Below, piece by piece: positions 12,284 to 28,550 of a stretch of 64,000 nt of DNA. The position numbers and the translations under genes were made by a program. The notes under the pieces were generated by a model. That model did not search any database, was not told where the DNA came from, and was given only the letters and a program-made list of their open reading frames with translations. The first letter of the stretch is position 1, and the number at the start of each line of letters is the position of its first letter. The DNA comes from Acutalibacteraceae bacterium. Its GTDB lineage: Bacteria > Bacillota > Clostridia > Oscillospirales > Acutalibacteraceae. Location: assembly GCA_045538935.1 (NCBI GenBank), contig JAZQEI010000004.1, positions 4,479 to 68,478 of the forward strand. Direction: 5' to 3'.

Positions 12284-13060
12284 TTGCACGAAGCAATAGA
12301 AATTAAATATTTTTACGAGGGCACAGCAACTCTTTTAATTGGTACCAATACCGTGTCGGTAAAGGCCGGAGATATAGTTGTTATTAACCCGTATGAGTTT
12401 CACGCTACGGTAGACTGCGGTGAAAAAAAGGGTAAATACCATTTATTTATGGTGCCTTTAGACTTTTTTTCTAACAATCAAAAAAGCGACCTTAATCTAC
12501 GCTCTCTCTTGCTTGTAGAAAAGAACTTTTTTAAGACTCTTATAAAAGATGAAAGAATGTCTAAAATTTTGCTCCGTATAGTGCAAGAAAATGCCGAAAA
12601 GCAACCCTTTGCCGAAATGGCAATAAAGGGGCTTTTGATGGAGTTTTTCTGTTTAATGTTCAGAAATTATACTCTAAACAAAGAAGAATCAGATTTTTTA
12701 CAAAAAGAAACCTTGCGGTCATACAAACTTATAGAACCGGCTCTCAGACATATACGTGATAATTTCGCAGAACCCTTTACGGTCGATATGCTCGCAAATT
12801 TTTGCGGACTAAGTAAGCATTATTTTTGTAGAGTTTTCAAAAATGTTACGGGCAAAACGGCTATGGAATATTTAAGGGACTACAGAATAAAGGTTTCAGA
12901 CGCAATGCTCACCAATACTGACAAAAGCATAAATCAAATTTCTGAGCAGTGCGGTTTTGAAAGTGTAAATTATTACTGCCGTTGTTATAAGGCTCATTAC
13001 GGCTTTTCGCCAAGTAAACGCAGAGCAAAAGGAGATGCTCCATTTGAATCGTTACCTTGA
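12284..13060 (+). CDS. AraC-family transcriptional regulator (cupin sensor domain plus HTH)
   Basis: C-terminal FCGLSKHYFCRVFKNVTGKTAMEYLRDYRI...INQISEQCGFESVNYYCRCYKAHYGFSPS is the AraC double HTH. The N-terminal GDIVVINPYEFH is cupin-like. The frame stays open and cupin-like back to 12182, so the true start may lie upstream (see findings). Confidence 0.8.
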   Translation: MHEAIEIKYFYEGTATLLIGTNTVSVKAGDIVVINPYEFHATVDCGEKKGKYHLFMVPLDFFSNNQKSDLNLRSLLLVEKNFFKTLIKDERMSKILLRIVQENAEKQPFAEMAIKGLLMEFFCLMFRNYTLNKEESDFLQKETLRSYKLIEPALRHIRDNFAEPFTVDMLANFCGLSKHYFCRVFKNVTGKTAMEYLRDYRIKVSDAMLTNTDKSINQISEQCGFESVNYYCRCYKAHYGFSPSKRRAKGDAPFESLP

Positions 13061-14132
13061 TATTTTACAAAAACAAAACACTAAGGTGTTAATCACGGGT
13101 GATAGCCTTTCGTATAACCGCTATTCCTACTATGAAGAGCCGCATATGAATGCGTATGAGTGCGGTGTTTCAATGCCTAGCTGGTCTTTTAGGGTTAGAG
13201 ATAAAATTTATGAACTTGATTCTCAGCTTATATACGGCAGCAATATTTTGTTTAACCAGTGCGGTGCGGTGGGTGTAGATGACCCTGATGCCGACAAATT
13301 TGCCGCCGCATTTGATGGCAAGTGCTATACCGTAGTTGCAAAAGATGAAGTATCGTTTAATGTTAATATAAAGTCGAGCACATTGGCTTTTTATTTTCAG
13401 ACTCGCCCCACCAATTATTGCACCTTTGATCTTTACATAGACGGTGAGCTTGCACACTCCAACATAAATACTAAGGGCGATGCCGAGTTCTTTAAAGGAT
13501 ATGCTATTTTACCGGTTAAAGCTCAGTGCAATGAAAATTTTAAAGAGCATAAAATAGAGTTTCGCAATATAAAGGGCGAGAATCCTAAAATCACCATAGG
13601 TGCGGTTGGCTCAAAATATATCGATATAAATCTTACCGGAAAGGGAAGCCAGACCACAAGATTTTTTATTGATAATTTTGATGAGCGTATTGGTCGTTTT
13701 GCACCAGATTTACTAATAATCATACTTTCTGCAAATGACCGAGCTTACGTAGCGCCCGAGGTTATGCGAAAAGATTTATTAGAGCTTTTCGCCCGCATTT
13801 TCAAGGTGAATAAAGACTGCAAAATACTGTTTTTACTGCCGCCATATTCGCATTTTGGCTCCAAGCCCCATATGGATTCGGGCATATATTCGTCTATAGA
13901 CACCGCCAACGTTTATAACACGGTTATTCGTGACGTAATAGCAAATTTAGGCAATGCTTGGTATAAGCATCCCGATTTAGACGGCACTATAAATTACGAT
14001 ATTGATATTTTGGCGGTTTGCGATTTATTTGATACTGAGAATCCGTCAGAATGGCGAGCTGATAATATTCATTTAAACCAAAACGGAAACAACATACTGT
14101 TTAAAGCAGTATGCGACAAATTAGGAATTTAA
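13035..14132 (+). CDS. SGNH/GDSL-type esterase with an inserted beta-rich domain
   Basis: VLITGDSLS (block I) and DNIHLNQNGN (block V). The start is ATG 13035, or TTG 13044 which has better spacing to AAAGGAG. It overlaps the AraC stop. Confidence 0.7.
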   Translation: MLHLNRYLDILQKQNTKVLITGDSLSYNRYSYYEEPHMNAYECGVSMPSWSFRVRDKIYELDSQLIYGSNILFNQCGAVGVDDPDADKFAAAFDGKCYTVVAKDEVSFNVNIKSSTLAFYFQTRPTNYCTFDLYIDGELAHSNINTKGDAEFFKGYAILPVKAQCNENFKEHKIEFRNIKGENPKITIGAVGSKYIDINLTGKGSQTTRFFIDNFDERIGRFAPDLLIIILSANDRAYVAPEVMRKDLLELFARIFKVNKDCKILFLLPPYSHFGSKPHMDSGIYSSIDTANVYNTVIRDVIANLGNAWYKHPDLDGTINYDIDILAVCDLFDTENPSEWRADNIHLNQNGNNILFKAVCDKLGI

Positions 14133-14142
14133 GGTGATTTTT

Positions 14143-15048
14143 ATGCAAAAAGCAAAAAGAATTGACGTACACGTTCACGCAACGCTTTTCCCCGACCTTG
14201 TACCCGATTGCAAATGGGGCGGCAGAGTTTTAACCGCCGAGGATCATATGGAGTATTGGGATAAAATAGACATTGACTATGGTGTTTTACTACCTATAGT
14301 TGCTCCCGAGGGACAGCTGCATCCGATGTCTTGCGAATCTGCAAAAATTATTGTCGATAAATATCCCGATAAGTTCGCTTGGTTTTGTAACATAGACCCA
14401 CGCTTTATGAATAATGCCGAAACATCTGATTTTAAGGTAATGCTTCAGCATTATAAAAACTTAGGTGCAAAAGGTGTTGGCGAAATTACATCTAATATGC
14501 ATGTAGACGACCCCAGAGTACAAAAGCTTTTTGCCGCTTGTGCCGAGTTAGATATGCCCGTAACTATTCACGTTGGCTTTCAAGAAGGCGGCTGCTACGG
14601 CATTATTGACGATTTACATCTTCCGAAAATTGAAAAGCTGTTACAAGATTATCCGAATTTAAAGCTTATAGGTCACTCGCAGCCATTCTGGATGGAAATG
14701 GGCACCGATGTAACCGAGGAAAACCGCAATAATCATTGCCCAACAACCAAGGTAGAAGAGGGCAGAATAGCAGAACTTATGCGTAAATACCCCAATTTAT
14801 ATGGAGATTTATCGGCAGGTAGCGGATCTAATGCTTTAATGCGCGATGAAGAATATGCTATAAAATTTGTTGAAGAATTTGCCGACAGACTTATGTACGG
14901 CTGTGATATCTGCGCAAAGGCAAACGATTTGCATTATAAATTTGATGCCTGGCTTAACCGTATGGTTGACGAGGGCAAAATCAGCATAGAAAACTACAAT
15001 AAGATAGTTAGAGAAAATGCTATTCGCATTCTTAAACTTGATATTTAA
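14143..15048 (+). CDS. metal-dependent amidohydrolase (amidohydrolase_2 / PF04909-like), paralog A
   Basis: ATG 14143 after AAGGTGA. IDVHVHA metal motif, LIGHSQPFW and a C-terminal YGCD...ENAIRILKL. Roughly half of its positions are identical by eye to the product of 15281-16186. Confidence 0.7.
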   Translation: MQKAKRIDVHVHATLFPDLVPDCKWGGRVLTAEDHMEYWDKIDIDYGVLLPIVAPEGQLHPMSCESAKIIVDKYPDKFAWFCNIDPRFMNNAETSDFKVMLQHYKNLGAKGVGEITSNMHVDDPRVQKLFAACAELDMPVTIHVGFQEGGCYGIIDDLHLPKIEKLLQDYPNLKLIGHSQPFWMEMGTDVTEENRNNHCPTTKVEEGRIAELMRKYPNLYGDLSAGSGSNALMRDEEYAIKFVEEFADRLMYGCDICAKANDLHYKFDAWLNRMVDEGKISIENYNKIVRENAIRILKLDI

Positions 15049-15080
15049 ATTTGCTTTCAATTTTTCCATACTTTTTTACA

Positions 15081-15125
15081 AGGAAACAACCCTAAGTTTT
15101 ACGCTTAGGGTTGTTTCCTATTTTA
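15081..15125 (+). terminator. strong rho-independent terminator inside the amino-sugar locus
   Basis: 16-bp perfect stem AGGAAACAACCCTAAG / CTTAGGGTTGTTTCCT, 7-nt loop, then ATTTT. Confidence 0.75.
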
Positions 15126-15180
15126 ATAGGAGTTGTTAAAAAGTTGACAATAAATTGACTATAAAATTCATTATTTTGTC

Positions 15181-15202
15181 AAAAAAGAGCAACCCAGTGC
15201 AA
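15181..15202 (+). promoter_or_regulatory. conserved 22-bp motif, copy 2
   Basis: AAAAAAGAGCAA-ccca-GTGCAA, identical half-sites and spacing to 12045-12066, upstream of the internal promoter. Confidence 0.45.
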
Positions 15203-15222
15203 TTTTTAATCAATGTAGTGCA

Positions 15223-15251
15223 TTGATTTATGACACATTATATAGGATAAT
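15223..15251 (+). promoter_or_regulatory. internal sigma-A type promoter
   Basis: TTGATT (15223-15228), 17-nt spacer, GATAAT (15246-15251). The small palindrome TCAATG-tagtg-CATTGA (15210-15226) overlaps the -35. Confidence 0.45.
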
Positions 15252-15280
15252 TGTATTAACAAATATTAAGGGGGTATTTT

Positions 15281-16186
15281 ATGGAAAACATAAAGAAAAT
15301 AGATATCCACGCACACGGTACAGCGTTTCCTGAATATTTGCCCAGTAAAGAATGGGTTGGCAGATTTTGCTCTGGCGAAGAGACCATTGCCTTTTACGAT
15401 AAGCTTAACATCGAAAAGGGTGTTTTGCTTCCGGTTTCATCCCCCGAAGCCTTTGTGTCACCCATGACTAGTGAAAATTGCAAATATATAACTACGCAGT
15501 ATCCGGACCGTTTCTTGTGGTTTTGTAACGTAGACCCAAGAGCCTTAACCAACGAATCTACGGCAGATTTAAAGCAACTGCTTGTTCACTACAAAAAACT
15601 AGGCGCCTTAGGTGTGGGTGAGGTAACGGCACAAATTTATGCCGATGACCCAAAGCTCGATAATCTTTTTGGTTGTTGCGAAGAATTAGATATGCCGGTG
15701 CTTATACATATTGCCCCAAAATTTGGCGGCGGCTACGGCATTGTAGATGATTTAGGACTGCCGCGAATTGAAAAAATGCTTAAAAAGCATCCTAACCTAA
15801 AGCTTATAGGTCACTCACAACCGTTTTGGGCAGAAATTTCGGCCGACTTAACAGAAGAGCAGCGTAACGATTTCCCCAAAGGCAAGGTTACTGAGGGCAG
15901 AGTAGTAGAACTTATGCGCAAATACCCAAACCTTTACTGCGACCTTTCTGCAGGTAGCGGCGCAAATGCTATGATGCGTGACGAAGAATTCGCAATGAAG
16001 TTTTTTAATGAATTCCAAGACCGCATCCTTTACGGCTGTGATATTTGCGACGTTTCAAACACACACCCGTTTATGTTTAACGACTGGTTAAACAAAATGG
16101 TTGAGGAAGAAAAGCTCCCCGTAGACATCTACCGCAAGATAGTAAGAGAAAACGCTATAAGGCTTTTAAAGCTGGAGGAAAATTAA
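15281..16186 (+). CDS. metal-dependent amidohydrolase (PF04909-like), paralog B
   Basis: RBS AAGGGGG. IDIHAHG, LIGHSQPFW and YGCD...ENAIRLLKL. Clear paralog of 14143-15048. Confidence 0.7.
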   Translation: MENIKKIDIHAHGTAFPEYLPSKEWVGRFCSGEETIAFYDKLNIEKGVLLPVSSPEAFVSPMTSENCKYITTQYPDRFLWFCNVDPRALTNESTADLKQLLVHYKKLGALGVGEVTAQIYADDPKLDNLFGCCEELDMPVLIHIAPKFGGGYGIVDDLGLPRIEKMLKKHPNLKLIGHSQPFWAEISADLTEEQRNDFPKGKVTEGRVVELMRKYPNLYCDLSAGSGANAMMRDEEFAMKFFNEFQDRILYGCDICDVSNTHPFMFNDWLNKMVEEEKLPVDIYRKIVRENAIRLLKLEEN

Positions 16187-16981
16187 ATGAACGTATTTAT
16201 TTTAGCCGACCTGGAGGGTGTATCTCTTGCGGACCACATTAGCATGATGCGACCAGAGCCCAAAGATAATCACCCCGGTTACGACTTTGCGTGCGAGCGT
16301 TTAGCAGTAGATCTTAACACCGCAGTAGATGCCGCCTTTGCGGGCGGTGCCGATACCGTAACTGTAATAGACGGTCATTTCAGAGGCGAAAATTTAGACC
16401 CCAATAAGCTCGATAAAAGAGCGGTTAAGTTAAACATTGAAGAATTCAGACCAATGGGTTGGGGTCGGTTCGATGCTCTTGTTTTGTTAGGTGCACACGC
16501 TATGGCCGGTACCGAGAACGCATTTTTGGATCACACCCAGAATTCTATTACCTGGTATGAATACAAGGTTAACGGAAAATGTTACGGTGAGATTGGTCAG
16601 GATGCTATAATGGCGGGCGCGTTTGACGTTCCGCTTGTGGCGGTTACGGGCGACGAGGCCGCTTGCGCAGAGGCCAAAACCTTAGTGCCAAACGTTTACT
16701 GCGCTGCAGTTAAAAAGGCAAAGGGCAGAAACAATGCTGAGTGTTTAGATCACGATACCGCACAAAAGTTAATTTTCGAGGCCGTAAAGAACGGTGTTGA
16801 AAACGCAAAGAACTTTGCGCCCTACAAAGAAACCTTCCCCGCAAAAATTTCGGTTACATACACTCGTAACGATTATGCTGATGCCGCAATGGAAAATCGT
16901 CCCAATTGCACAAGGCATGGCAGAACTGTTGAAAAAACAGAAGAAAAATTAGAATGCTTCCCGCAACTTCATTTGTGGTAA
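16187..16981 (+). CDS. M55-family (DppA-like D-aminopeptidase) metallopeptidase homolog
   Basis: RBS GGAGG. The N-terminal VFILADLEGVS and GAHAMAGT...FLDHT patterns match the peptidase M55 layout. Confidence 0.6.
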   Translation: MNVFILADLEGVSLADHISMMRPEPKDNHPGYDFACERLAVDLNTAVDAAFAGGADTVTVIDGHFRGENLDPNKLDKRAVKLNIEEFRPMGWGRFDALVLLGAHAMAGTENAFLDHTQNSITWYEYKVNGKCYGEIGQDAIMAGAFDVPLVAVTGDEAACAEAKTLVPNVYCAAVKKAKGRNNAECLDHDTAQKLIFEAVKNGVENAKNFAPYKETFPAKISVTYTRNDYADAAMENRPNCTRHGRTVEKTEEKLECFPQLHLW

Positions 16982-17017
16982 AACAATACATTTCAATTAT
17001 TTAAAGGAGAAATTATT

Positions 17018-18262
17018 ATGGAAAAATTAGCAATCTTTGGCGGAGAAAAAACAAAAACTACACCCTACGGCACAGGCAAACGTTTTGGCAAAGAAGAGCT
17101 TGCAAATTTAGAGGAAGCTTTAAACCAAAACACATTATTTTACTGGTTTGGCAATATGACTAAGCGCTTTACAAAGAAATTTGCCGATATGTACGGAGCA
17201 GATTACTGCGTTGCAACTTCTTCGGGTACTGCATCTATTCACGTAGCATTAGGCGCTATTGGTGTTGGCCCTGGCGATGAGGTTATTACATCTCCTATAA
17301 CCGATATGGGAAGCTTAATCGGTATTCTTTATCAGAACGCAATTCCTGTATTTGCAGACTTAGACCCAAACACCTACAATATGGATGCAAAATCTATTGA
17401 AGCAAAAATCACTCCCAGAACAAAGGCAATAGTGGTTGTTCATTTATCTGGTAACCCTGCCGAGATGGACGAAATTTGCCGTATTGCTAAAAAGCATAAC
17501 GTATATGTTATTGAGGACTGCGCACAGTCTTATTGCTGTAAGTACCAAGGCAAATATGCTGGTACTTGGGGTGATATCGGTTGCTTTAGCCTTAACGACT
17601 TTAAGCATATTTCTGCAGGCGACGGCGGTATGATTATTACCAACAACCAAGACCTTTATCACAGAGCATTAATGTTTGCCGATAAAAACTTTAACCGCCT
17701 AGGTACCGAGGTTGTTAAAAACGTACCTTATCTTGCACCTAACTACCGTATGAACGAGCTTACCGCTGCAGTGGCTATTGCTCAACTAGACAGAGTAGAA
17801 GAAATCTGCGCAAAGCGTAAAGCATACGGCGATAAATTACATGAAGCACTTCACGGCATCCCCGGAATTATTCCGCAGAAGATTTATGACTGTGCAGAGT
17901 GCTCTTACTGGTTCTATATGTTCACAGTAGATGAAAATGAGCTTGGCACAACACGTAAAGAGTTTGTTGAGGCTCTAGTAGCCGAAGGCATTATTGCATT
18001 TAACGGCTACATTCCGTCTTGCGTATATCAGTACGATATGTTCAAAAATAAAACCATTTATCCCGGTACTACACAGTATCCGCTCGATGGCGTACACGGC
18101 GAGGCAATCCAGTACAAAGACGGTGACTGCCCGAATGCAGAGCATATTATTGATACCTGCGTAAAACTCACAGTAAATGAGTTCTATACCGAGCAAGATT
18201 TAGAAGAAACAATCGCAGCTATCAAAAAGGTTGCAACATACTTTAATGCCAATAAAAAATAA
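17018..18262 (+). CDS. DegT/DnrJ/EryC1/StrS-family PLP aminotransferase 1
   Basis: ATSSGTASIHVAL, VIEDCAQS and the PLP-lysine context FSLNDFKHISAGDGGMI. Confidence 0.8.
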   Translation: MEKLAIFGGEKTKTTPYGTGKRFGKEELANLEEALNQNTLFYWFGNMTKRFTKKFADMYGADYCVATSSGTASIHVALGAIGVGPGDEVITSPITDMGSLIGILYQNAIPVFADLDPNTYNMDAKSIEAKITPRTKAIVVVHLSGNPAEMDEICRIAKKHNVYVIEDCAQSYCCKYQGKYAGTWGDIGCFSLNDFKHISAGDGGMIITNNQDLYHRALMFADKNFNRLGTEVVKNVPYLAPNYRMNELTAAVAIAQLDRVEEICAKRKAYGDKLHEALHGIPGIIPQKIYDCAECSYWFYMFTVDENELGTTRKEFVEALVAEGIIAFNGYIPSCVYQYDMFKNKTIYPGTTQYPLDGVHGEAIQYKDGDCPNAEHIIDTCVKLTVNEFYTEQDLEETIAAIKKVATYFNANKK

Positions 18263-18293
18263 TTTTTAATTGAGAAATAAAAGGAAAATTATT

Positions 18294-19628
18294 ATGGAAA
18301 AATTAGCATTACTCGGCGGTACACCCGTCATAGATGATAGTTTAACAAAAGAAAAATACGATCATCTATTTAAATGGCCAATTATGGGTAAAGAAGAAGA
18401 GGAAGTTGCCTTAGATGTTGTTAGAAACAACAGATTTTCTGCTACCGACATTACCGAAAAGTTCCAAGAAGAATATGCCGCTTGGATCGGCTCTAAGTAT
18501 GCTATAGCATATTGCAACGGCACAGCATCTCTTTCGGCCGCAATGTTTGCAATAGGTCTTTCTCAGGGTGATGAAATTATCTGTCCTACAAAAACCTATT
18601 GGGGCAGCGTTTCGCAGGCAATAAACTTCGGCGCATCGGCAGTTTTCTGTAACATCAACGAAAATCTTTCCTTAGACCCTACCGACCTTGAACGTTGCAT
18701 CACACCCAAAACCAAGGCAATAATGGTTGTTCACTATCTTGCATACCCTGCCGATATGGATGCCATAATGGCCATTGCTAAAAAGCACAATTTAAAGGTT
18801 ATAGAAGACGTTTCTCACGCTCAGGGCGGTATGTATAAGGGCAAGCGTCTGGGTACCTTTGGTGACGTTGGCGCAATGAGTCTTATGAGCGGTAAGTCTT
18901 TTGCTGCAGGTGAGCTTGGTATTTTAGTTACCGATGATCGCCATGTTTACGAGCGTGCAATGGCGTTTGGTCATTACGAGCGTAACAACGAAAATTACAT
19001 AAAGGAAAGCGATGAGCTTAAAGGCTATTATCATATAGCACTTGGCGGCATTAAGGGCAGAGCAAATCAGCTTTGCTCGGGTATAGCCAGAGTTCAGCTT
19101 AAATATTACGATCAGCGTTGTGCAGAGATTAGAAAGGCTATGAACTACTTCTGGGATTTAGTAGAAGATCTTCCCGGTATTCGTCCTATACGAGTTGATG
19201 AATCTACAGGCTCTAATATGGCAGGCTTTTATTCTCCACACGGAATTTACAAGTCCGAGGAGCTTCATGGTTTGTCGGTTAAAAAGTTCTGCGAGGCATT
19301 AAGAGCCGAGGGTTATAAACTAAGCTGGGAAGGTGCAAACTTCTGCTTGCATACACATAAGTTCTTTAAAACCTTTGACCTTACCGGTAGCGGCAAGCCC
19401 ACAAGAATCGCTTATAATGACCGCGATGTAAGAGAAGATGACGACAAGTGCAAACCGAGTGAAAGCATTTCTTGCTTCTCTGTACCTTGGTTTATACATT
19501 ACGATAAAGAATGGATCGAAAAATATGCGTCTATCTTCCGTAAGGTTATACTAAATCACGAGCAACTATTAGAGTTCGATACCGACAAATCTCAAGGCGG
19601 TAGATGGTATGGCACAACAAACGTCTAA
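18294..19628 (+). CDS. DegT/DnrJ/EryC1/StrS-family PLP aminotransferase 2
   Basis: ATG 18294 lies 8 nt after AAGGA. YCNGTASLSAAM, VIEDVSHAQG and MSLMSGKSFAAGELGIL. The track start at 18270 was rejected. Confidence 0.8.
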   Translation: MEKLALLGGTPVIDDSLTKEKYDHLFKWPIMGKEEEEVALDVVRNNRFSATDITEKFQEEYAAWIGSKYAIAYCNGTASLSAAMFAIGLSQGDEIICPTKTYWGSVSQAINFGASAVFCNINENLSLDPTDLERCITPKTKAIMVVHYLAYPADMDAIMAIAKKHNLKVIEDVSHAQGGMYKGKRLGTFGDVGAMSLMSGKSFAAGELGILVTDDRHVYERAMAFGHYERNNENYIKESDELKGYYHIALGGIKGRANQLCSGIARVQLKYYDQRCAEIRKAMNYFWDLVEDLPGIRPIRVDESTGSNMAGFYSPHGIYKSEELHGLSVKKFCEALRAEGYKLSWEGANFCLHTHKFFKTFDLTGSGKPTRIAYNDRDVREDDDKCKPSESISCFSVPWFIHYDKEWIEKYASIFRKVILNHEQLLEFDTDKSQGGRWYGTTNV

Positions 19629-19650
19629 TGTTAAATTTTAAGGAGTTAAT

Positions 19651-20649
19651 ATGGCTAATAAACTAAATTTTGGTATTTTAGGCTGTGGAATGATAGCTAA
19701 TTTCCACGCTAAAGCAATACAGTCGTTAGATAATGCTGTTCTTTACGGCGTTGCTGATAACGATTTTAACAGAGCCCAAGGTTTTGCCGAAAACTATTCT
19801 ATTAAGGCATATAAAACTTATGAAGATATGCTTTCTGACAGTGAGATAGATGCTGTTTGCGTTTGTACTCCAAGCTTTTTCCATGCCGAGAATGCAATAG
19901 ATGCATTAAGGGCTAATAAGCATGTAGTGCTAGAAAAACCAATGGCTATAACTGTAGAAGATGCCGAGCGCATAATAGCAGAGTGCAAAACAAGCGGCAA
20001 ACTTTTAACCGTTATTTGCCAGCTTCGCTTCTCAAGCGATATGCAAAAATTAAAGCAGTTAATAGCCGAAGATGCTTTTGGTAAAATTGCTTTTTGCGAC
20101 CTTTATATGAAGTACTGGCGTGACCCATCTTATTATGCAAACGGCGGTTGGAAGGGCACTAAGAAGTTTGATGGCGGCGGCGCTTTAATGAATCAAGGTA
20201 TTCACGGCGTAGATGCTTTGTTGTATCTTGCTGGCGATGCTAAACTTTTAAAAGCCAAAACAAAAACACATCTTCATAATATTGAGGTTGAAGATTTAGC
20301 GGTTGCTATGTTAGAGTTTGAAAACGGCGCGTTAGGTGTTATAGAGGCATCTACCTGCGTAAACCCTGGTTTTGACCGTAAAATAGAAATTTTAGGCTCA
20401 AACGGTTGCGCAATATTAAAAGAAGATAAATTTGAAAAGCTTGTAGTAAGAGGCGAAACTATTATAGAAAACGGTAGTCAGAATGCTGTCGGTACGGCGT
20501 CAGACCCGTCGGCTATGAGCCACAAGCTACACGCTATGCAAATAAACAACCTAATAAATGCAGCTATGGGTAAGGAAGCTTTACTTATTGACTGCAATGA
20601 GGGACTAAGAGCAGTTAAGCTTATTGAAGAAATTTATAAGGAGATATAA
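19651..20649 (+). CDS. Gfo/Idh/MocA-family oxidoreductase 1
   Basis: N-terminal Rossmann FGILGCGMIANFHA, the EKP motif (VVLEKPMA) and a C-terminal GFO_IDH_MocA_C-like region. Confidence 0.8.
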   Translation: MANKLNFGILGCGMIANFHAKAIQSLDNAVLYGVADNDFNRAQGFAENYSIKAYKTYEDMLSDSEIDAVCVCTPSFFHAENAIDALRANKHVVLEKPMAITVEDAERIIAECKTSGKLLTVICQLRFSSDMQKLKQLIAEDAFGKIAFCDLYMKYWRDPSYYANGGWKGTKKFDGGGALMNQGIHGVDALLYLAGDAKLLKAKTKTHLHNIEVEDLAVAMLEFENGALGVIEASTCVNPGFDRKIEILGSNGCAILKEDKFEKLVVRGETIIENGSQNAVGTASDPSAMSHKLHAMQINNLINAAMGKEALLIDCNEGLRAVKLIEEIYKEI

Positions 20650-20653
20650 TAAA

Positions 20654-21538
20654 ATGAAACAGTTTAGAGTAGGTATTGTTGGTACTGAAAATAGCCATGC
20701 ACACGGCTTTACAACCGCCTTTAATAAGGCAGACGAAAATGGTAATTTTAAATATCCCGACTGTCGTATTACACTTGTTTACGGTCACTACCCCGAGGAA
20801 AACGAGCGCTTAGTTAAGGAATTCGGTGCTGACAAGGTGGCAGAAAACCTAGAAGAAATGGTAGCTAATGTTGATGCAGTTATCGTTTGTGCAAGAGACG
20901 GTAAATTCCATTACGAATTTGCAAAACCGTTTATTGAAGCAGGCATACCTGCATTTATCGATAAGCCTTTTACTACCGACCCCGAAGAAGCGGTTGCTCT
21001 TATAAATCTTGCAAAAGAAAATAACGTTCCTCTTTGCGGTGGCTCTATGCTTAAATTTGCCGACAATATTATGGAGGCAAAGGCAGCACGTTTAAATGGC
21101 GAGAGAGAAACATTGGGCGGCTCGGTTTGCGCTCCTGTTATATTAAACAGTGAGTACAGCGGATTTTTCTTTTATGCATCACACCTTGCAGAAATGACAT
21201 TAGAGTCGTTTGGTTATAATCCCATAAGCGTTACCGCAAAATTAAGCAAGGGTGGAGTATGCGCTACTGTAAATTATGAAAACTTTAGCGTATCTAACCA
21301 CTTTACTGAAAACGGTTGGAATTATGCCATCAGCACATATACCACTAAAGAAATTGTTGCAGCTCCTATGACATTAGACAATGCAGGCGCCAGAGAAATT
21401 GATGAATTTGTACAGATGCTTCGCACAGGTAAAATGGGCAACACCTACGAAGAGTTAGCGTTCCCCGTATTTTATCTTAATGCCATAAAGAAGGCATACG
21501 AAACAGGCGAAGAAGTAAAAATTGAAGCTAAATTTTAA
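20654..21538 (+). CDS. Gfo/Idh/MocA-like oxidoreductase 2 (divergent)
   Basis: ATG 20654. VGIVGTENSHAHGF and AFIDKPF (a DKP variant of the EKP motif). The nucleotide-binding loop is atypical. Confidence 0.6.
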   Translation: MKQFRVGIVGTENSHAHGFTTAFNKADENGNFKYPDCRITLVYGHYPEENERLVKEFGADKVAENLEEMVANVDAVIVCARDGKFHYEFAKPFIEAGIPAFIDKPFTTDPEEAVALINLAKENNVPLCGGSMLKFADNIMEAKAARLNGERETLGGSVCAPVILNSEYSGFFFYASHLAEMTLESFGYNPISVTAKLSKGGVCATVNYENFSVSNHFTENGWNYAISTYTTKEIVAAPMTLDNAGAREIDEFVQMLRTGKMGNTYEELAFPVFYLNAIKKAYETGEEVKIEAKF

Positions 21539-21547
21539 GGAGATTTT

Positions 21548-22309
21548 ATGAAGACATTAACTAAAGACAAGTTAGTTGTTAATATTTACGATACAAGATC
21601 CGAAATGGGTGCCGCCGCAGGTACTAAGGCTGCTGAGCTTATAAAGAAATACCTTTTGGCGAAGGAAGAGGTAAATGTAATATTTGCCGCCGCACCTTCT
21701 CAAAACGAAACACTAGATACTCTTGTAAAGGCTGAGGGTATTGACTGGAGCAGAGTAAATGCGTTCCATATGGACGAATATATAGGCCTTAGCAAAGATG
21801 CTCCACAAGGCTTCGGCAACTTTTTAAGGGAGCATATATTTAAATTTTTACCCTTTAAGAGTGTAAATTATATCGACTGCGAGGCAAAGGATATCGATGC
21901 CGAGTGCGCACGTTATTCTGCACTTTTAAAGGCAAATCCTGTGGATATAGTTTTACTCGGCATTGGTGAAAACGGTCACATTGCCTTTAACGACCCCCAT
22001 GTTGCCGACTTTAATGATAATGCTATGGTAAAGGCCGTAAAATTAGATGATGTATGCCGTCAACAACAGGTTAACGACGGCTGCTTTAAGACTTTAAGCG
22101 ATGTTCCCGAGTATGCTTTAACCCTAACAATTCCTACATTAGTAAGTGCCAAGCATATGGTATGTACAGTACCTGCAGCTACAAAGGCTTGGGCTGTAGC
22201 AGCTACCGTAAATGAGGAAATTTCTGAAAAGGTTCCGGCAACCATTATGCGCAAGCACGAAAGCGCTATTATGTATTGCGATAAAGACAGTGGGAGAGAT
22301 TTACTGTGA
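21548..22309 (+). CDS. nagB: glucosamine-6-phosphate deaminase/isomerase family protein (NagB-like)
   Basis: FHMDEYIGL and LLGIGENGHIAFNDP are the NagB/6-phosphogluconolactonase-fold signatures. The IFAAAPSQ loop differs from canonical NagB, so the substrate may differ. Confidence 0.7.
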   Translation: MKTLTKDKLVVNIYDTRSEMGAAAGTKAAELIKKYLLAKEEVNVIFAAAPSQNETLDTLVKAEGIDWSRVNAFHMDEYIGLSKDAPQGFGNFLREHIFKFLPFKSVNYIDCEAKDIDAECARYSALLKANPVDIVLLGIGENGHIAFNDPHVADFNDNAMVKAVKLDDVCRQQQVNDGCFKTLSDVPEYALTLTIPTLVSAKHMVCTVPAATKAWAVAATVNEEISEKVPATIMRKHESAIMYCDKDSGRDLL

Positions 22310-23463
22310 TACTTAAAATTACAGGCGGACGTCTTATTACAAACGACGGTATCATAGAGGGTAAAGACATTTACACCGAAAACGGCATTATAACCCATAT
22401 TACCGCAGAACAACTTCCGTATGATGAGGTTATTAACGCCAACGGTAATTTTGTGTCGCCCGGTTTTATAGATTTACACGTTCACGGTGCGGTAGACTGT
22501 GATTTTTCTGATCAGAGCGAAACATCTGTAATAAATGCCGTAAATTATCATTTAAAGCACGGTACAACTACTATTTATCCTACCATTACCTCTGTTCCGG
22601 TTAGTGTTATGGATAATAGCTTAAAGGCAATAAAATCCGTAATGCAAAGCGGTAATACACCTTGCAATATTGCTGGCGCACATCTAGAGGGGCCGTACTT
22701 TTCTCCTATGCAGTGCGGTGCGCAGAATCCCGAAATTATAACACCTCCAAAAAAGCAAGATTATGAGCTTCTTTTAAACAAGTACGACGGTGTTATAAAA
22801 CGTTGGAGCTTTGCGCCTGAGCTAGATGGCACCGATGATTTTATGGATGCTTTAAATGAGGCTGGGGTAGTATCGTCTGTTGGACATACCGATGCACTTT
22901 ACTCAGATGTACAAAGGGTATATAATAAGGGCTGTAAACTTATAACCCACTTTTATTCTTGCACCTCTACAATAACTCGCGATAAAGGTTTTAGACGTCT
23001 TGGCGTTGTAGAGAGCGGATATTTGTTTGATGATATATCGGTAGAGGTAATTGCCGACGGATGTCATATTCCAAAGGAGCTCTTTGGCCTTATATATAAG
23101 ATTAAGGGCGATGATAACATCTGTCTTGTTACCGATGCTATACAACTTGCGGGTAGCAAGTGCGAGGTAGGCAGTGTTGGCGGTGTGCCTTGTAAGGTTA
23201 AAGACGGTGTCGCAAGGCTTATGGATGAAAGCGCCTTTGCAGGTAGCATTGCTACTACTGATAGATTAGTGCGCTTTTGTGTAAACGATGTAAAGCTACC
23301 AATACATAAGGCGGTTAAAATGATAACCAGTAACCCTGCACGTGTAATGGGCCTTAAAAACAAAGGTCAGTTACAGGTTGGGCACGATGCCGACATAGTT
23401 ATTTTTGATAACGATATAAATATTAAAAATGTAATCGTAATGGGAAAAGAAGTGAACATATAA
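22306..23463 (+). CDS. nagA: N-acetylglucosamine-6-phosphate deacetylase family amidohydrolase
   Basis: GTG start overlaps the upstream stop. GFIDLHVHG, GAHLEGPYF, VGHTDA, EVIADGCHIP and LVTDA follow the NagA motif order. Confidence 0.75.
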   Translation: MILKITGGRLITNDGIIEGKDIYTENGIITHITAEQLPYDEVINANGNFVSPGFIDLHVHGAVDCDFSDQSETSVINAVNYHLKHGTTTIYPTITSVPVSVMDNSLKAIKSVMQSGNTPCNIAGAHLEGPYFSPMQCGAQNPEIITPPKKQDYELLLNKYDGVIKRWSFAPELDGTDDFMDALNEAGVVSSVGHTDALYSDVQRVYNKGCKLITHFYSCTSTITRDKGFRRLGVVESGYLFDDISVEVIADGCHIPKELFGLIYKIKGDDNICLVTDAIQLAGSKCEVGSVGGVPCKVKDGVARLMDESAFAGSIATTDRLVRFCVNDVKLPIHKAVKMITSNPARVMGLKNKGQLQVGHDADIVIFDNDINIKNVIVMGKEVNI

Positions 23464-24440
23464 TGAATATAGCATTTGCAGGTTTAAAGCACTCGCATAT
23501 TTTTGTTTTGTATAATTTAGCACAGCAAAATAATAAGTTTAATGTTGTGGGTGCATTTGAAGATGGTGCTGAATATGTGCAGTTAGCCAATAAAAACGGA
23601 GTAGAGTGTAACTACAAAACCTTTGACGAGTTATTAAATGACAAAAATGTTGATGTAGTAGCTTTAGGCGGCTATTTTGGCGAGCGCGGACAAATGGCAA
23701 TAAAGGCATTAAAGGCAGGTAAGCACGTAATAGCCGACAAGCCTCTTTGTACATCTTTAAAAGAGCTTAAACAAATTGAAAAATTGGCACAAAAAAGCGG
23801 CAAAAAGGTAAGCTGTATGTTTACCATGCGCTTTGACGAGCCTAAAGTGTTAGCTGCCAAAAAACTTTATGAGAGCGGCGCATTAGGTCAGATTAATAAC
23901 GTGATTTTCTCAGGCCATCATCCTTTGCAGTATGGCAGACGACCAATGTGGTATTTTGAAAAGGGTAAACATGGCGGTGTTATTAACGATATTGCTATTC
24001 ACGCTATAGATATTTTATCTTTTGCATTTGGTTTAGAGATTGAAACCCTAAATGCTGCAAGGTGTTGGAACGCATACGCGAGCGAGCAAAAGTGCTTTAA
24101 AGATAGCGGCCAAATTATGCTTACGGCTTCTAACGGAGCAGGTATAATGGGTGATGTTTCTTATGCCATACCCGATGGTGTAGAGTTTAAATATCCTAAT
24201 TACTGGCGTTTCCAAATTTTTGGAACAAAGGGCGTTTTAGATTTCTCTTTAGGCGGTTCAGATGCAGTATATTACCTTAAAGATGACCCCACACCGCACA
24301 AGCTAGAAGAGTGTGACACCAATAATTATCTTGATGATTTTTATAATCTTGTAAACGGTGAAGAAAATGTTGTTTTAACTCCAGAAGAGGTATTTGCCGC
24401 AACAAAAACCACTTTAGAAATTCAGCGTTTAAGCAAATAA
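23463..24440 (+). CDS. Gfo/Idh/MocA-family oxidoreductase 3
   Basis: ATG overlaps the upstream TAA (TAATG). HVIADKPL (EKP-type motif) and the overall Gfo/Idh/MocA layout. Confidence 0.7.
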   Translation: MNIAFAGLKHSHIFVLYNLAQQNNKFNVVGAFEDGAEYVQLANKNGVECNYKTFDELLNDKNVDVVALGGYFGERGQMAIKALKAGKHVIADKPLCTSLKELKQIEKLAQKSGKKVSCMFTMRFDEPKVLAAKKLYESGALGQINNVIFSGHHPLQYGRRPMWYFEKGKHGGVINDIAIHAIDILSFAFGLEIETLNAARCWNAYASEQKCFKDSGQIMLTASNGAGIMGDVSYAIPDGVEFKYPNYWRFQIFGTKGVLDFSLGGSDAVYYLKDDPTPHKLEECDTNNYLDDFYNLVNGEENVVLTPEEVFAATKTTLEIQRLSK

Positions 24441-24450
24441 TTATAATAAA

Positions 24451-24477
24451 AACAACCACTTTTGTGGTTGTTTTTTT
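24451..24477 (+). terminator. rho-independent terminator
   Basis: AACAACCAC tttt GTGGTTGTT followed by a T-run. Confidence 0.8.
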
Positions 24478-24525
24478 ATTTTTAATATTGTAAAATGGAA
24501 AAAAGAAAAATTAAGGGGTGTTTAT

Positions 24526-26223
24526 ATGTTGCATTTAATACCTAAGGTAAAAACTCTAAAAATATTTGATGGTTTTTTATCAAAAAATACCGTTTGCATT
24601 AATACTGATTTTGAGGATGAGCGTCTTTTTATTGCTGCAAAAAATTTGCCTCAAAATGTTGACGGCATAAAATTAGAATTTAATATTCAAAGTAATGATA
24701 GTGAAATTTATGAAATCGAAATAAAGCAAGATTTAATTTCGGTTAATGCAAATTCTATAGTCGCTGCATTTTATGCTATTCAAACACTTCGACAAATTTT
24801 TACGCATAAAAATATTCCTTGCCTTTATATAAAAGACTGGCCCGATTTAAAGTATCGCGGCTTTTATCACGATGCGACAAGGGGTAGAATTTTAACCGTA
24901 GACGCCGCCAAAAAGCTAATAGATACAATGGCTTATTATAAGCTTAATTCCTTGCAGCTTTACGTAGAGCATACCTATGAGTTTAAAGAGCTCAAAGAGC
25001 TTAATAAAACTACAGGTTGTTTAACGAGCGAAGAATTGCACCAAATAGATTTATATGCAAAGCAAAACTTTATTGATTTTATTCCGTCGCTCTCAACCTT
25101 TGGACATATGTATGAAATTTTAGAGCAAGAACCCTTTAAAAATTTAAGGGTTTTAAAAGAAAACTTTAAAAATTATCTGTTTGCCCGTATGATGCATCAT
25201 ACAATAAACCCAGAAGAAAAAGAGAGCATTGAGCTTGTTAAAAGTTTAATAGATCAGTACGTGCCTTGCTTTTCTTCGGAATACTTTAACATTTGCTGTG
25301 ACGAAACCTTTGACCTCAAAAATTACAAGGGTCAAAGCGATTCTAAAACGCTTTATATAGAGTTTGTAAAGCAAATTATTGCTCACGTAAAAGCAAAAGG
25401 CAAAAAGGTTATGATGTGGGCCGATATTTTGCTTGAATACCCCGAGCTTATTGAGCAAATAGATGATGACATTTATTTTTTAAACTGGGAGTACGAGCCT
25501 GAGCCTAACGAGCAAAAAATTATAAAATTTAAAAATTTAGGACGCACTCAAATTGTTTGCCCTGGCACTTGGTCTTGGTACCGTTTCTGTGAAAGGGTAG
25601 AGTGGGAAGAGCAAAACATTGCTAATATGGCAAATTATGCTTATGAACACGGTGCTTTTGGTATGCTTAATACCAACTGGGGCGATTTTGGTCACCCGGC
25701 CCCTATAGAGCTTGCTCTTTACGGTATGGTTCTCGGCGCCGCAAAATCTTGGGAGCATAAAACAAACCTTGACGATGATTATTTTGCCGATGTTGATTAT
25801 CTGCTTTATAAGCAAGACGGTGCAGTAGCTATTTTAAAACAGCTCAGTCTTTACCATTCAAAACTCGAGTGGCGCGATTTTGTTGCAGTTAAGGTTGCTT
25901 TTGAATACGGTGACAAACCTGAAATTAAACTTTCAGAGCAAACCGTAAAAGAAATTCAGCGTGAGTATAAAGAAATAATGTTAAAAATAAACGCTGAGCC
26001 TCAAAACGAATTTTTATCGGCTTTTGGCTTAGCTGCCAAAGCAGTTTTGGTAATTGCAGAAATCACAGCTAAAATTGCAGGCTACAATATAGAGCGCATT
26101 ACCAACACAAAAGAGTTTTTAGGTGAGTATTCAAAACAGTGGATTTCACAGAGCAAAGAAAAAGAGTTGTTCTTAGTAACCGACGTTTTCGAAACTCTAG
26201 AGGCAAAATCAAAGGAGATATAA
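24526..26223 (+). CDS. GH20-family beta-N-acetylhexosaminidase, cytoplasmic (no signal peptide)
   Basis: RBS AAGGGG. WPDLKYRGFYHDATRG (GH20 TIM-barrel start) and YFNICCDE (catalytic D-E pair context). There is no N-terminal hydrophobic signal. Confidence 0.7.
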   Translation: MLHLIPKVKTLKIFDGFLSKNTVCINTDFEDERLFIAAKNLPQNVDGIKLEFNIQSNDSEIYEIEIKQDLISVNANSIVAAFYAIQTLRQIFTHKNIPCLYIKDWPDLKYRGFYHDATRGRILTVDAAKKLIDTMAYYKLNSLQLYVEHTYEFKELKELNKTTGCLTSEELHQIDLYAKQNFIDFIPSLSTFGHMYEILEQEPFKNLRVLKENFKNYLFARMMHHTINPEEKESIELVKSLIDQYVPCFSSEYFNICCDETFDLKNYKGQSDSKTLYIEFVKQIIAHVKAKGKKVMMWADILLEYPELIEQIDDDIYFLNWEYEPEPNEQKIIKFKNLGRTQIVCPGTWSWYRFCERVEWEEQNIANMANYAYEHGAFGMLNTNWGDFGHPAPIELALYGMVLGAAKSWEHKTNLDDDYFADVDYLLYKQDGAVAILKQLSLYHSKLEWRDFVAVKVAFEYGDKPEIKLSEQTVKEIQREYKEIMLKINAEPQNEFLSAFGLAAKAVLVIAEITAKIAGYNIERITNTKEFLGEYSKQWISQSKEKELFLVTDVFETLEAKSKEI

Positions 26224-26862
26224 ATGTTCAGCGTAATTTTCGATATGGACGGAACTCTTTTAGACACCCAGCGCATTTTTATTGATGCTTGGAACTGTGC
26301 AGGTGATATGCAGGGAATAAAAAATCTGGGCGCACATATTCCAAACGTTTGCGGAATGGGTGAGCCTGCCTGGACTGCATATTTGGTAGAAAATTTTAAA
26401 AGTCTTGATATTTTAAAGTTTAAAACCGATGCTCACGCTTATATTGTAGACCATTTGGAAGTGAAATTCAAAAAAGGCGCAAAAGAGTTGCTTGAGTTTT
26501 TAAAACAAAACGGTATAAAAACGGCCATTGCCTCGGGCTCGGCAACGCCGGTTGTTAAGCATCACTTAGGGGTTGTGGGAGCTAATGATTACTTTTTATC
26601 CGTTCTTGGCGGAGAGACCGTTACAAACGGTAAGCCCGCACCCGATATTTTTCTTTTGGCTGCTGAGAAAATAGGCGCTAATCCTAAAGACTGCTTTGTA
26701 ATAGAAGATTCTGAAAACGGAATTGTGGCAGGGTACAGGGCAGGAATGAACTGTATAGGTGTTCCTGATATTGTGCAGTTTAAAGATGAAATAAAAGACA
26801 AATGCTATGCATATGTAGACTCGCTTTTAGATGTAATAGATATTTTTAAAAATTTAATTTAA
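26224..26862 (+). CDS. HAD-IA family hydrolase (beta-phosphoglucomutase/phosphatase-like)
   Basis: VIFDMDGTLLDT, ASGS, GKPAPDIF and VIEDSENG motifs. Confidence 0.8.
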   Translation: MFSVIFDMDGTLLDTQRIFIDAWNCAGDMQGIKNLGAHIPNVCGMGEPAWTAYLVENFKSLDILKFKTDAHAYIVDHLEVKFKKGAKELLEFLKQNGIKTAIASGSATPVVKHHLGVVGANDYFLSVLGGETVTNGKPAPDIFLLAAEKIGANPKDCFVIEDSENGIVAGYRAGMNCIGVPDIVQFKDEIKDKCYAYVDSLLDVIDIFKNLI

Positions 26863-26871: not shown

Positions 26872-26900
26872 AACCGCCAAGGCTTCATGCCTTGGCGGTT
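26872..26900. terminator. bidirectional terminator
   Basis: AACCGCCAAGGC ttcat GCCTTGGCGGTT, flanked by an A-run upstream and TTTTAATTT downstream. It lies between convergent genes. Confidence 0.8.
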
Positions 26901-28537: not shown

Positions 28538-28550
28538 GTTTTTCCTCCTT

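Follow-up and report, generated by a model that had tools for sequence, protein, structure and literature searches.

The dehydrogenases WlbA and GnnA pair with aminotransferases of the DegT family in biosynthesis, where they add a 3-amino group beside the 2-acetamido group of a sugar. In the biosynthesis of UDP-2,3-diacetamido-2,3-dideoxy-hexuronic acid the work is divided between the 3-dehydrogenase WbpB/WlbA, the aminotransferase WbpE/WlbC and the N-acetyltransferase WbpD, and GnnA and GnnB make UDP-GlcNAc3N. A different route, the ong pathway of Pseudoalteromonas, has been shown experimentally to comprise the GH20 enzyme OngA, the deacetylase OngB, the pyridoxal phosphate (PLP) deaminase OngC and KdgK (PMC9537276). 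Here we describe a locus of an Acutalibacteraceae bacterium, at positions 12284–26862 of a stretch of 64,000 nucleotides (assembly GCA_045538935.1, contig JAZQEI010000004.1, positions 4,479 to 68,478; the whole stretch is referred to as the window). The locus is a genuine conserved operon of gut Clostridia, and its very probable role is the breakdown of an uncommon N-acylated amino sugar by enzyme types otherwise familiar from amino-sugar biosynthesis.

The locus consists of 14 co-directional open reading frames (ORFs) on the + strand of the window's ORF list, with intergenic spacings of −26 to +36 nt and two exceptions, of 232 nt (15049–15280) and 85 nt (24441–24525). An initial annotation of the same sequence had counted fifteen genes, but its own three units, of three, nine and two genes, add up to 14. 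Its family assignments all held when the products were compared with Pfam by hmmscan, the SGNH esterase alone falling below the gathering score. The genes and their associated signals are as follows.

12284..13060, + strand: AraC-family regulator with cupin sensor and helix-turn-helix domains (PF00165, PF12833, PF02311)
13035..14132, + strand: SGNH/GDSL-type esterase, cytoplasmic, with an inserted middle domain (PF13472 below threshold, motifs)
14134..15048, + strand: AH2a, a PF04909 metal-dependent hydrolase (PF04909, E 1.9e-15)
15081..15119, + strand: terminator-like hairpin at the end of unit 1 (17-bp stem, 7 GC pairs)
15184..15227, + strand: candidate operator of unit 2, a direct repeat followed by a palindrome
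15281..16186, + strand: AH2b, a PF04909 metal-dependent hydrolase and proposed N-deacylase (PF04909)
16187..16981, + strand: M55 (DppA-like) metallopeptidase and proposed amidase (PF04951, E 1e-55, 189 bits)
17018..18262, + strand: DegT1, a DegT/DnrJ/EryC1/StrS PLP aminotransferase (PF01041, 296 bits)
18270..19628, + strand: DegT2, a DegT-family aminotransferase (PF01041, 213 bits; likely start at ATG 18294)
19651..20649, + strand: Gfo1, a Gfo/Idh/MocA oxidoreductase (PF01408, PF02894, PF22725)
20624..21538, + strand: Gfo2s, a divergent Gfo/Idh/MocA protein (PF01408 alone, N-terminal domain)
21548..22309, + strand: NagB-like deaminase/isomerase of a distinct subfamily (PF01182)
22306..23463, + strand: NagA-type N-acetyl-amino-sugar deacetylase (TIGR00221, PF01979)
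23463..24440, + strand: Gfo3, a Gfo/Idh/MocA oxidoreductase (PF22725, PF01408)
24448..24475, + strand: terminator-like hairpin at the end of unit 2 (12-bp stem and T-run)
24526..26223, + strand: divergent cytoplasmic GH20 beta-N-acetylhexosaminidase, accessory (PF00728, PF02838)
26224..26862, + strand: HAD-IA phosphatase or beta-phosphoglucomutase-like hydrolase, accessory (PF13419)

The window was compared with 173 homologous loci, which are numbered with the prefix L. L008 (JAFSCI010000001.1), from the metagenome-assembled genome (MAG) Clostridia bacterium RGIG3013 of goat rectum, is fully syntenic, with proteins 76–99% identical to those of the window. Among 79 loci of GTDB species representatives surveyed with DegT1, L008 is the only one with the entire gene set; DegT1 orthologues, which are 55–81% identical and mostly adjoin an AraC gene, are often accompanied by a PF04909 gene and a Gfo1-like gene, and at times by DegT2 and Gfo2s. 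A survey with DegT2, covering 45 metagenome loci of at least 8 kb, found PF04909 genes in 14, Gfo1-like genes in 8, DegT1 in 7 and Gfo4-like genes in 6, together with M55 (4), ABC permeases (4), ceramidase-like genes (3) and a NagB-like gene (1). The widely recurrent unit is an amide or metal hydrolase with a DegT and a Gfo enzyme, and NagA and the NagB-like protein are added to it in one clade only.

Small versions of the unit are found in L167 (AraC–AH2–DegT2–Gfo1–HAD), in L005 (M55–AH2–DegT1–Gfo1) and in L085 (AraC–AH2–GHL6/GH42M–AH2–DegT1–Gfo1). Independent look-ups that started from the NagB-like protein led to two longer metagenome loci, L170/171 (AraC–AH2–M55–M55–DegT2–Gfo1–Gfo2s–NagB-like–NagA–Gfo3–SGNH–GH51-like) and L172 (AraC–AH2–M55–DegT2–Gfo1–Gfo2s–NagB-like–NagA–Gfo3–DegT–GH51-like–SGNH), the products of which are 29–77% identical to the window proteins. 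In L084 the core genes are rearranged, and a UxuA–SDR–Eda–PfkB set, a tail for 2-keto-3-deoxygluconate (KDG), starts 19 bp downstream of them. A core of about ten genes is co-conserved in the window's clade, and its order, which other lineages share, is more than chance. For each of AH2b and the NagB-like protein there are at least 120 homologue clusters (90% identity) with representatives that share 60% identity or more with the window protein, and matching lengths of the longest contig suggest, in several more cases, that NagB-like homologues may share contigs with homologues of AH2b or DegT1.

These comparisons led us to reject the 12-gene core put forward in the initial annotation: GH20 and the HAD protein occur in this species only, DegT1 and the second PF04909 gene are variable, and the SGNH esterase is conserved. 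The neighbourhood check that it recommended came out partly in its favour: in L008, L170/171, L172 and L084, nagA and the nagB-like gene are conserved together with the aminotransferase and dehydrogenase genes. Co-conservation in several lineages makes a single cytoplasmic amino-sugar pathway reasonable. The single-pathway idea is supported within this clade; in the broad surveys NagA and the NagB-like protein are not general partners of the DegT/Gfo/PF04909 module.

That broad pattern is also what would be expected if an ordinary nagA/nagB/GH20 set for N-acetylglucosamine 6-phosphate (GlcNAc-6-P) had come by chance to lie beside an unrelated DegT/Gfo/PF04909 module: the module mostly lacks NagA and the NagB-like protein (the latter in one of the 45 DegT2 loci, NagA in few DegT1 loci), terminator-like hairpins cut the window locus into three units, and NagA meets its equivalog model. 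However, the NagB-like gene, nagA and gfo3 sit between gfo2s and an SGNH or DegT gene in four lineages with gaps of 0–15 nt, each NagB-like member for which the context was seen lies in such a cluster, the subfamily is without the NagB phosphate site, and the conserved part of the locus does not include GH20. Of the explanations considered here, chance adjacency has the slightest prospect of being right.

The wider context of the modules is that of sugar utilisation. Across the loci there are AraC regulators, esterases and glycosidases of the GH20, GH51-like, GHL6/GH42M, GH109 and GH78 types, and related modules stand with sugar ABC systems (LplABC-type) in L018, L091, L106 and L107. The usual glycosidase of sister loci is GH51-like, as against GH20 in the window. 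GH109-type NAD-dependent glycosidases accompany related modules at L106:8681–13515 and L169:2491–3714; L106 further encodes a BD-FAE esterase and a CapA-like PGA_cap protein, and L169 adjoins a PL8/GH88/KduI glycosaminoglycan locus.

The NagB-like protein fails the TIGR00502 equivalog model (135.2 bits vs 236.9). It keeps the catalytic Asp (MDEYIGL) and His (GENGHIAFNDP) of NagB as well as Lys208, with Glu148 replaced by Asp; by alignment rather than structure, the NagB phosphate loop GLPTGGTP (GLxTGxTP) is replaced by FAAAPSQN and Arg172 by Gly (NDGCF). The same motifs recur in 118 or more of the 120 homologues examined. No sugar kinase or phosphotransferase system (PTS) is encoded in the cluster, L170, L172 or L084, the PfkB of L084 being grouped with Eda and UxuA. 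The altered phosphate site and the lack of a kinase or PTS in the core loci together make a non-phosphorylated substrate likely and fructose 6-phosphate a doubtful product. The initial annotation had correctly stated that no kinase, PTS or transporter lies within 12284–26862; its proposal that the pathway feeds into fructose 6-phosphate does not fit a NagB-like subfamily without the phosphate-binding loop and Arg172. The residue patterns led us to reject identification of the protein as a plain NagB.

NagA passes the TIGR00221 equivalog model narrowly (236.2 bits vs 225.65). Its metal ligands (HxH, E, H, H) and catalytic Asp are kept, as is an Arg in the anion-binding segment. Gfo3 (DKP motif; best PDB match 3u3x, E 4e-30) always adjoins NagA and the NagB-like protein, and is 61–62% identical to its counterparts in L170 and L172. 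NagA is 76% identical between L008 (15310–16464) and the window (22306–23463), whereas the other proteins of this same-species MAG are 84–99% identical, which suggests local recombination or faster divergence of the nagA gene alone.

DegT1 and DegT2 are 30% identical to each other, and each has an invariant catalytic lysine in its family (Lys196 and Lys201, respectively). An exact-sequence look-up found no record of the DegT1 sequence; after L008, its closest homologues are in MAGs of Acutalibacteraceae, Faecousia, Flemingiibacterium and other Oscillospiraceae. DegT2 is 75–76% identical to its counterparts in L170 and L172. A single ORF of 892 aa in a MAG of Victivallales (L041:6934–9612) has DegT2-like and DegT1-like halves, and is either a fusion or a sequencing artefact; a real fusion would imply that the two enzymes act together.

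Gfo1 has GxGxxA and EKP motifs, and its best PDB matches (E 3e-41) are 3q2i and 3q2k, which we take to be WlbA, the UDP-GlcNAcA 3-dehydrogenase. Gfo2s has a DKP motif and 58–63% identity to its counterparts in L170 and L172; only its N-terminal domain is recognised, and its best PDB match (E 5e-8) is 7bvj, identified in a preprint as the UDP-GlcNAc 3-dehydrogenase GnnA (10.1101/2024.11.05.622173). Against the model of the archaeal UDP-GlcNAc 3-dehydrogenase, NF040723, Gfo1 scores 136 bits (1e-39) where the cut-off is 450, and its best NCBIfam match is IolG (1.4e-44; 152 vs a cut-off of 355). The DegT proteins score below the cut-off of every DegT equivalog model. The likeness to kanosamine and nucleotide-sugar enzyme logic that the initial annotation had pointed out is real: Gfo1 and Gfo2s have 3-dehydrogenases that act on 2-acetamido sugars among their nearest relatives, and Gfo1 may be a keto-sugar reductase or 3-dehydrogenase.

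Every characterised relative among the DegT, WlbA and GnnA enzymes is biosynthetic, and this raises the question of direction. In a biosynthetic or salvage pathway, GlcNAc or GlcNAc-6-P supplied by GH20, NagA and NagB would be oxidised at C3, aminated and dephosphorylated by the HAD protein, to give a kanosamine-like or 2,3-diamino sugar for secretion or as a wall precursor. Gfo, DegT and HAD follow the order of chemistry of NtdC/NtdA/NtdB, a HAD gene closes the minimal module of L167 and the window has another (26224–26862), and a DegT1 homologue, 74% identical, adjoins polysaccharide-biosynthesis genes in L086. However, HAD is missing from L170, L172 and L084, and NtdA is well behind other DegT structures as a match (E 2e-28 vs 5e-60; its two E-values are 2e-28 and 2e-23). 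The locus is also without a nucleotidyltransferase, glycosyltransferase, acetyltransferase or exporter; its hydrolases (two or three PF04909 proteins, M55, SGNH and glycosidases) and AraC regulator, with importers elsewhere, are typical of utilisation loci; and L084 carries the KDG tail. Biosynthesis is accordingly judged quite improbable. The initial annotation had allowed for a reverse, biosynthetic direction, and this is disfavoured by the AraC regulator, glycosidases, esterases, sugar ABC transporters and the one KDG tail.

The IolG match also bears on an aminocyclitol or inositol substrate (an inosamine, a rhizopine-like compound, aminoglycoside fragments or plant glycosyl-inositol-phosphoceramides), in which case the Gfo enzymes would be inositol or inosose dehydrogenases and the DegT enzymes inosose aminotransferases. 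IolG is the best curated match of Gfo1, and scyllo-inosose and Gln:2-deoxy-scyllo-inosose aminotransferases are among the top structure matches of the DegT proteins. The module of L012 is followed by a TIM-barrel gene of the PF01261 (IolE/IolI) type and L015 has one too, the operator motif described below is shared by the ceramidase-like genes of L170 and L172, and the HAD protein could act as an inositol-phosphate phosphatase. The scores are nevertheless far below the family cut-offs, no iolBCDE-type genes are found in the core loci, PF01261 is absent from the window, L170, L172 and L084, and NagA, the NagB-like protein and GH20 indicate a 2-acetamido aldose, all of which leaves such a substrate very improbable. 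In L012, from a Bacillota MAG, an alanine racemase and a xylose-isomerase-like PF01261 TIM-barrel (3568–4755 and 13568–14431) accompany a third DegT/Gfo pair; both the racemase and the PF01261 protein are absent from the window.

Among the hydrolases, AH2a and AH2b are paralogues with 56% identity. AH2b, the commonest neighbour of the DegT2 family in the metagenome survey, has an invariant ligand set (D8, H10, H12, E114, H143, H178, D254). A phmmer search of solved structures with AH2b gave no match, and a profile search gave 3irs alone (E 4e-5). In Foldseek, the AH2b model (predicted local distance difference test, pLDDT, 93.7) retrieves only remote PF04909 relatives of mixed chemistry, with template modelling (TM) scores of 0.5–0.64. 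The M55 gene adjoins AH2b homologues in L005, L169, L170 and L172 and is near one in L088. In several loci of Lentisphaerota, Victivallales and Armatimonadota (L058, L064, L065, L069, L071, L075 and L078) a ceramidase-like gene stands beside the DegT–Gfo pair instead of PF04909, and the Cohnella locus L018 also has one. Ceramidases are amidases, and their presence in the place of PF04909 suggests that the hydrolase partner strips an N-acyl group.

The SGNH esterase scores 30.9 bits against PF13472, just below the gathering score of 32.9; it has GDS and DxxH (DNIH) motifs and no signal peptide, and its counterparts in L170 and L172 are 29–30% identical. GH20 keeps the D–E catalytic pair (CDE; best PDB match E 4e-13), and inspection found no hydrophobic N-terminus, in agreement with the initial annotation of a protein without a signal peptide. 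It occurs in one of the 173 loci, L008, which is of the same species as the window. The HAD-IA protein has a DMDGT motif and an orthologue in L008 only; the HAD gene that follows the minimal module of L167 is unrelated.

The PF04909 enzymes could alternatively be lactonases, which is what characterised sugar-related members of the family are, and the TM-scores of the AH2b model for the lactonase-type structures 4dlf and 4i6k are as high as any. The operon would then encode an oxidative, non-phosphorylative hexosamine route, in which a Gfo enzyme oxidises an N-acetylhexosamine at C1 to a lactone, PF04909 opens this to N-acetyl-hexosaminate, NagA deacetylates it, and DegT transaminates or deaminates the resulting D-alpha-amino acid, a 2-amino-aldonate, to yield a 2-keto(-3-deoxy)aldonate for the KDG pathway, as an anaerobic analogue of the ong and D-glucosaminate (dga) pathways. 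The ong pathway likewise joins a GH20 enzyme to a deacetylase of the amidohydrolase type, a PLP deaminase and KdgK (PMC9537276). UxuA–SDR–Eda–PfkB at the end of L084 would fit, and the M55 'D-aminopeptidase' of the window and the alanine racemase of L012 would suit D-amino-acid-like intermediates. Such a route, however, leaves the NagB-like protein without a role, despite its strict co-conservation with NagA and Gfo3; alpha-amino acids are not known as substrates of any DegT-family enzyme; several of the nearest Gfo1 relatives oxidise secondary alcohols (sugar C3, inositol) and not C1; and replacement of PF04909 by a ceramidase-like amidase in other phyla suits an amidase better than a lactonase. 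On balance the oxidative route is unlikely.

The favoured scheme is instead one of deacylation, transamination and reduction; from the families, synteny, operator and residue patterns of these loci we infer its direction and step order, its substrate and what the hydrolases do. The operon would be AraC-controlled, cytoplasmic and probably non-phosphorylative, and would catabolise an N-acylated amino sugar with more than one nitrogen function, a tentative reading that we put at somewhat under an even chance. The probable source of the sugar is a surface glycan of bacteria or archaea, or some other complex glycan. An imported oligosaccharide would be trimmed by the SGNH esterase and by a glycosidase, which is GH20 in the window and GH51-like in sister loci. 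AH2a/AH2b and/or M55 (a ceramidase-like enzyme elsewhere) would next deacylate the 'extra' amino group, with M55 serving as an amidase for an aminoacyl or other N-acyl substituent. A DegT-type PLP aminotransferase would then turn the freed amine into a ketone and a Gfo/Idh/MocA enzyme would reduce the ketone to a hydroxyl, so that from deacylation to reduction the biosynthetic logic of WbpD/WbpE/WbpB or GnnB/GnnA would be run in reverse. The initial annotation had the pathway oxidise and transaminate its substrate, and the present order is likelier in a catabolic locus. After removal of the 2-N-acetyl group by NagA, the NagB-like isomerase-deaminase would convert the 2-amino aldose, which would not be a 6-phosphate, to a ketose and ammonia; the aldose might be a 6-deoxy sugar, or a uronate from which fructuronate would form. 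The ketose would finally be passed to central metabolism by Gfo3 together with downstream enzymes whose genes lie elsewhere, for example through mannonate and KDG. The hydrolase/DegT/Gfo unit is doubled in the window (AH2a/AH2b, DegT1/DegT2, Gfo1/Gfo2s), which may reflect two amino positions or related substrates.

Two narrower versions of this scheme merit separate grading. In the first, the operon would encode a catabolic pathway, the first to be known, for rare di-amino sugars found on microbial surfaces, such as 2,3-diacetamido-2,3-dideoxy-hexuronic acids or 2,4-diamino-6-deoxy-hexoses, with reversed Wbp/Gnn chemistry on free sugars, a new PF04909/M55 N-deacylase, phosphate-independent NagA and NagB-like enzymes, fructuronate or a 6-deoxy-ketose as the end product, and a widespread part in necromass recycling by gut Oscillospirales; taken as a whole, it is doubtful. 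In the second, suggested by the L084 tail, the WlbA similarity and the missing phosphate site, the substrate would be a 2,3-di(acyl)amino hexuronic acid that the NagB-like enzyme turns into fructuronate, for passage to mannonate and KDG without UxaC; this version is rather unlikely. Lipid A, pseudomurein and plant glycosyl-inositol-phosphoceramides are, as substrates, speculation only.

Several observations weigh against the favoured scheme. No uxuA, uxuB, eda or kdgK is encoded in the 64-kb window, and the KDG tail is present in one locus only (L084). The AH2b model is equally remote from lactonases, decarboxylases and hydratases, which makes no function transferable from it, and we know of no characterised N-deacylase within PF04909. 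The GH51-like and rhamnosidase neighbours point to plant-type glycans, which are not known to contain diamino sugars. The HAD phosphatase is without a role in the scheme, and the match of NagA to its model, with the Arg of the anion-binding segment, would leave room for a phosphorylated substrate. The DegT1 homologue of L086 and the IolG match of Gfo1, both described above, also count on this side.

Regulation of the operon can be approached through a candidate operator. The AraC ORF as listed begins with TTG at 12284 and encodes 258 aa, about 30 aa below its orthologues (287–294 aa). An in-frame CTG at 12188 stands behind the ribosome-binding site AAGGGGTG, the 32 upstream codons are free of stops and L008 is arranged alike; the true start is probably this non-canonical CTG, about 96 nt upstream. 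Upstream of the gene, at 12048..12066 (+), is the direct repeat AAAGAGCAA-N4-GTGCAA, of which a second copy lies at 15184–15202. With up to 2 mismatches allowed, the window has no further match, a test of uniqueness that is partly circular because the pattern was derived from its own two sites. In the 232-nt gap before unit 2 is the palindrome ATCAATGTAGTGCATTGAT (15209–15227), which is unique in the window and overlaps a weak promoter-like site (15223–15251). The PF04909 genes of L167, L170 and L172 have an exact copy of its core, TCAATGyAGTGCATTGA, in the corresponding upstream position, and that of L008 has a copy with 2 mismatches. The core is also present upstream of AraC in L085 and in the divergent promoter regions between ceramidase-like and AraC genes (L172) and between ceramidase-like and GH78 genes (L170). 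A scan of 2.35 Mb with up to 3 mismatches allowed gave 10 matches, of which about 7 fall in promoter regions of these kinds. The conservation of the palindrome across loci argues for a dedicated regulon, which in sister loci takes in the ceramidase-like gene, and 15184–15227 is a candidate site for the AraC protein.

With regard to transcription, the initial annotation had ended unit 1 in a terminator followed by a promoter, and unit 2 in a second terminator. The hairpins were found in these places; the promoter scan overall performed no better than on shuffled sequences, and the sole + strand promoter-like site in the gap at 15049–15280, that at 15223–15251, is weak (9/12). An Rfam scan of the whole window found no RNA elements, and so no riboswitch in the 232-nt gap. 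Directly downstream of the cluster are:

26872..26900, no strand assigned: bidirectional terminator, common to the cluster and the convergent transporter operon (12-bp stem, 8 GC pairs, T-runs on both strands)
26921..28576, − strand: NhaC-family membrane transporter, convergent with the cluster (PF03553, E 1.6e-48)
28709..29521, − strand: AH2c, a third PF04909 hydrolase, upstream of the transporter gene on the same strand (PF04909, E 1.4e-20)

The translation of the NhaC-family protein has, by eye, many hydrophobic membrane-like segments, and its position makes it a candidate importer. AH2c has no BLAST similarity to AH2a or AH2b. A gene for an SSF sodium:solute symporter lies 5 kb downstream (31585–33162), with no established link to the cluster; the importer of the oxidised amino sugar in the ong pathway is likewise of the SSF family. 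Further along the window are housekeeping genes for pyruvate:ferredoxin oxidoreductase (37426–40971) and for an alpha-amylase family protein and glycogen/maltodextrin phosphorylase (42107–46378, −). Large DUF2142 membrane proteins (52030–54153, +, and 57132–59162, −) are encoded among GT2 and GT4 glycosyltransferases at 52030–62247, probably a cell-wall glycopolymer assembly locus, and a second AraC-family gene is at 62682–63434 (−).

The locus is very probably an amino-sugar utilisation locus with uncharacterised enzyme logic, and no earlier description of its substrate or its pathway seems to exist. The search for a described orthologous cluster that the initial annotation recommended found none in open-access full text, which leaves room for publication elsewhere, and the same search gave no pathway for hexosaminuronic acid, for bacillosamine or for sugars derived from nonulosonic acids. 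The families concerned are very abundant in gut and rumen Clostridia, where they are annotated just as 'amidohydrolase', 'DegT aminotransferase' or 'glucosamine-6-phosphate deaminase'. If the favoured scheme is true, it would provide a new mode of dismantling amino sugars, by transamination and keto-reduction with non-phosphorylative NagA/NagB chemistry, and it would give a function to a PF04909 subfamily that has been uncharacterised so far and to a sugar-linked M55 peptidase. The scheme would also correct a widespread mis-annotation of NagB, and reveal a nutrient niche, probably microbial or other complex glycans with N-acylated amino sugars, that is absent from metabolic reconstructions of the gut microbiome. 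The conserved operator offers a handle for finding the inducer.

When set beside the known systems, the operon belongs to none of the canonical nag operon, NtdABC, Wbp/Gnn biosynthesis or the ong pathway. The initial annotation was right that this is not a canonical nag operon: NagA meets TIGR00221, a PF01182 protein has the NagB catalytic Asp and His, and GH20 is nearby, but the NagB-like protein fails its equivalog model and has neither the phosphate loop nor Arg172, no kinase or PTS is present, the regulator is of the AraC type rather than NagC, NagR or GntR, and the genes are set among aminotransferases and oxidoreductases. With Wbp or GnnA/GnnB biosynthesis it shares a Gfo/Idh/MocA and DegT pair acting beside a 2-acetamido group. 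Unlike in those systems, there are no UDP-sugar enzymes (dehydrogenase, epimerase), acetyltransferase or glycosyltransferases in the 14 genes or the sister loci, hydrolases take the place of the acyltransferase, the context is one of AraC and glycosidases, and the pathway is proposed to run the opposite way, on free sugars and not nucleotide sugars; with low identities and no score that reaches an equivalog cut-off, the similarity is at the level of family only. The trio of Gfo, DegT and HAD in the window and in L167 recalls kanosamine synthesis by NtdC/NtdA/NtdB (KabC/KabA/KabB), from which the locus differs in that HAD is not part of L170, L172 or L084, NtdA is distant (E 2e-28), additional hydrolases, NagA and a NagB-like protein are present, and the context looks catabolic.

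Closer in apparent purpose are the ong pathway and the dga pathway of Salmonella, in which GH20, an amidohydrolase-type deacetylase and a PLP enzyme lead to KDG with no GlcNAc-6-P intermediate, and to which the KDG tail of L084 corresponds. OngB, however, is a D-aminoacylase and OngC a D-amino-acid deaminase, by the paper's description neither PF04909 nor DegT (PMC9537276), whereas the corresponding families here are PF01979 (NagA) and PF01041 (DegT), with a KdgK-like PfkB in L084 only; those pathways, moreover, are without Gfo or NagB-like enzymes, aerobic and dependent on lytic polysaccharide monooxygenases. Rhizopine and inositol catabolism (MocA, IolG) likewise employ Gfo/Idh/MocA dehydrogenases, and IolG is the top curated match of Gfo1, but the locus has no iol or moc companions and the scores are far below the cut-off. 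As in Firmicute sugar-utilisation loci, an AraC gene stands at the head, with a candidate operator whose palindrome and direct repeat are conserved across loci; no transporter lies inside the locus, and a gene of the NhaC family is convergent and adjacent. Judged by its gene content, the locus would thus work like a sugar-utilisation operon that has borrowed the enzyme pair of 3-amino-sugar biosynthesis.

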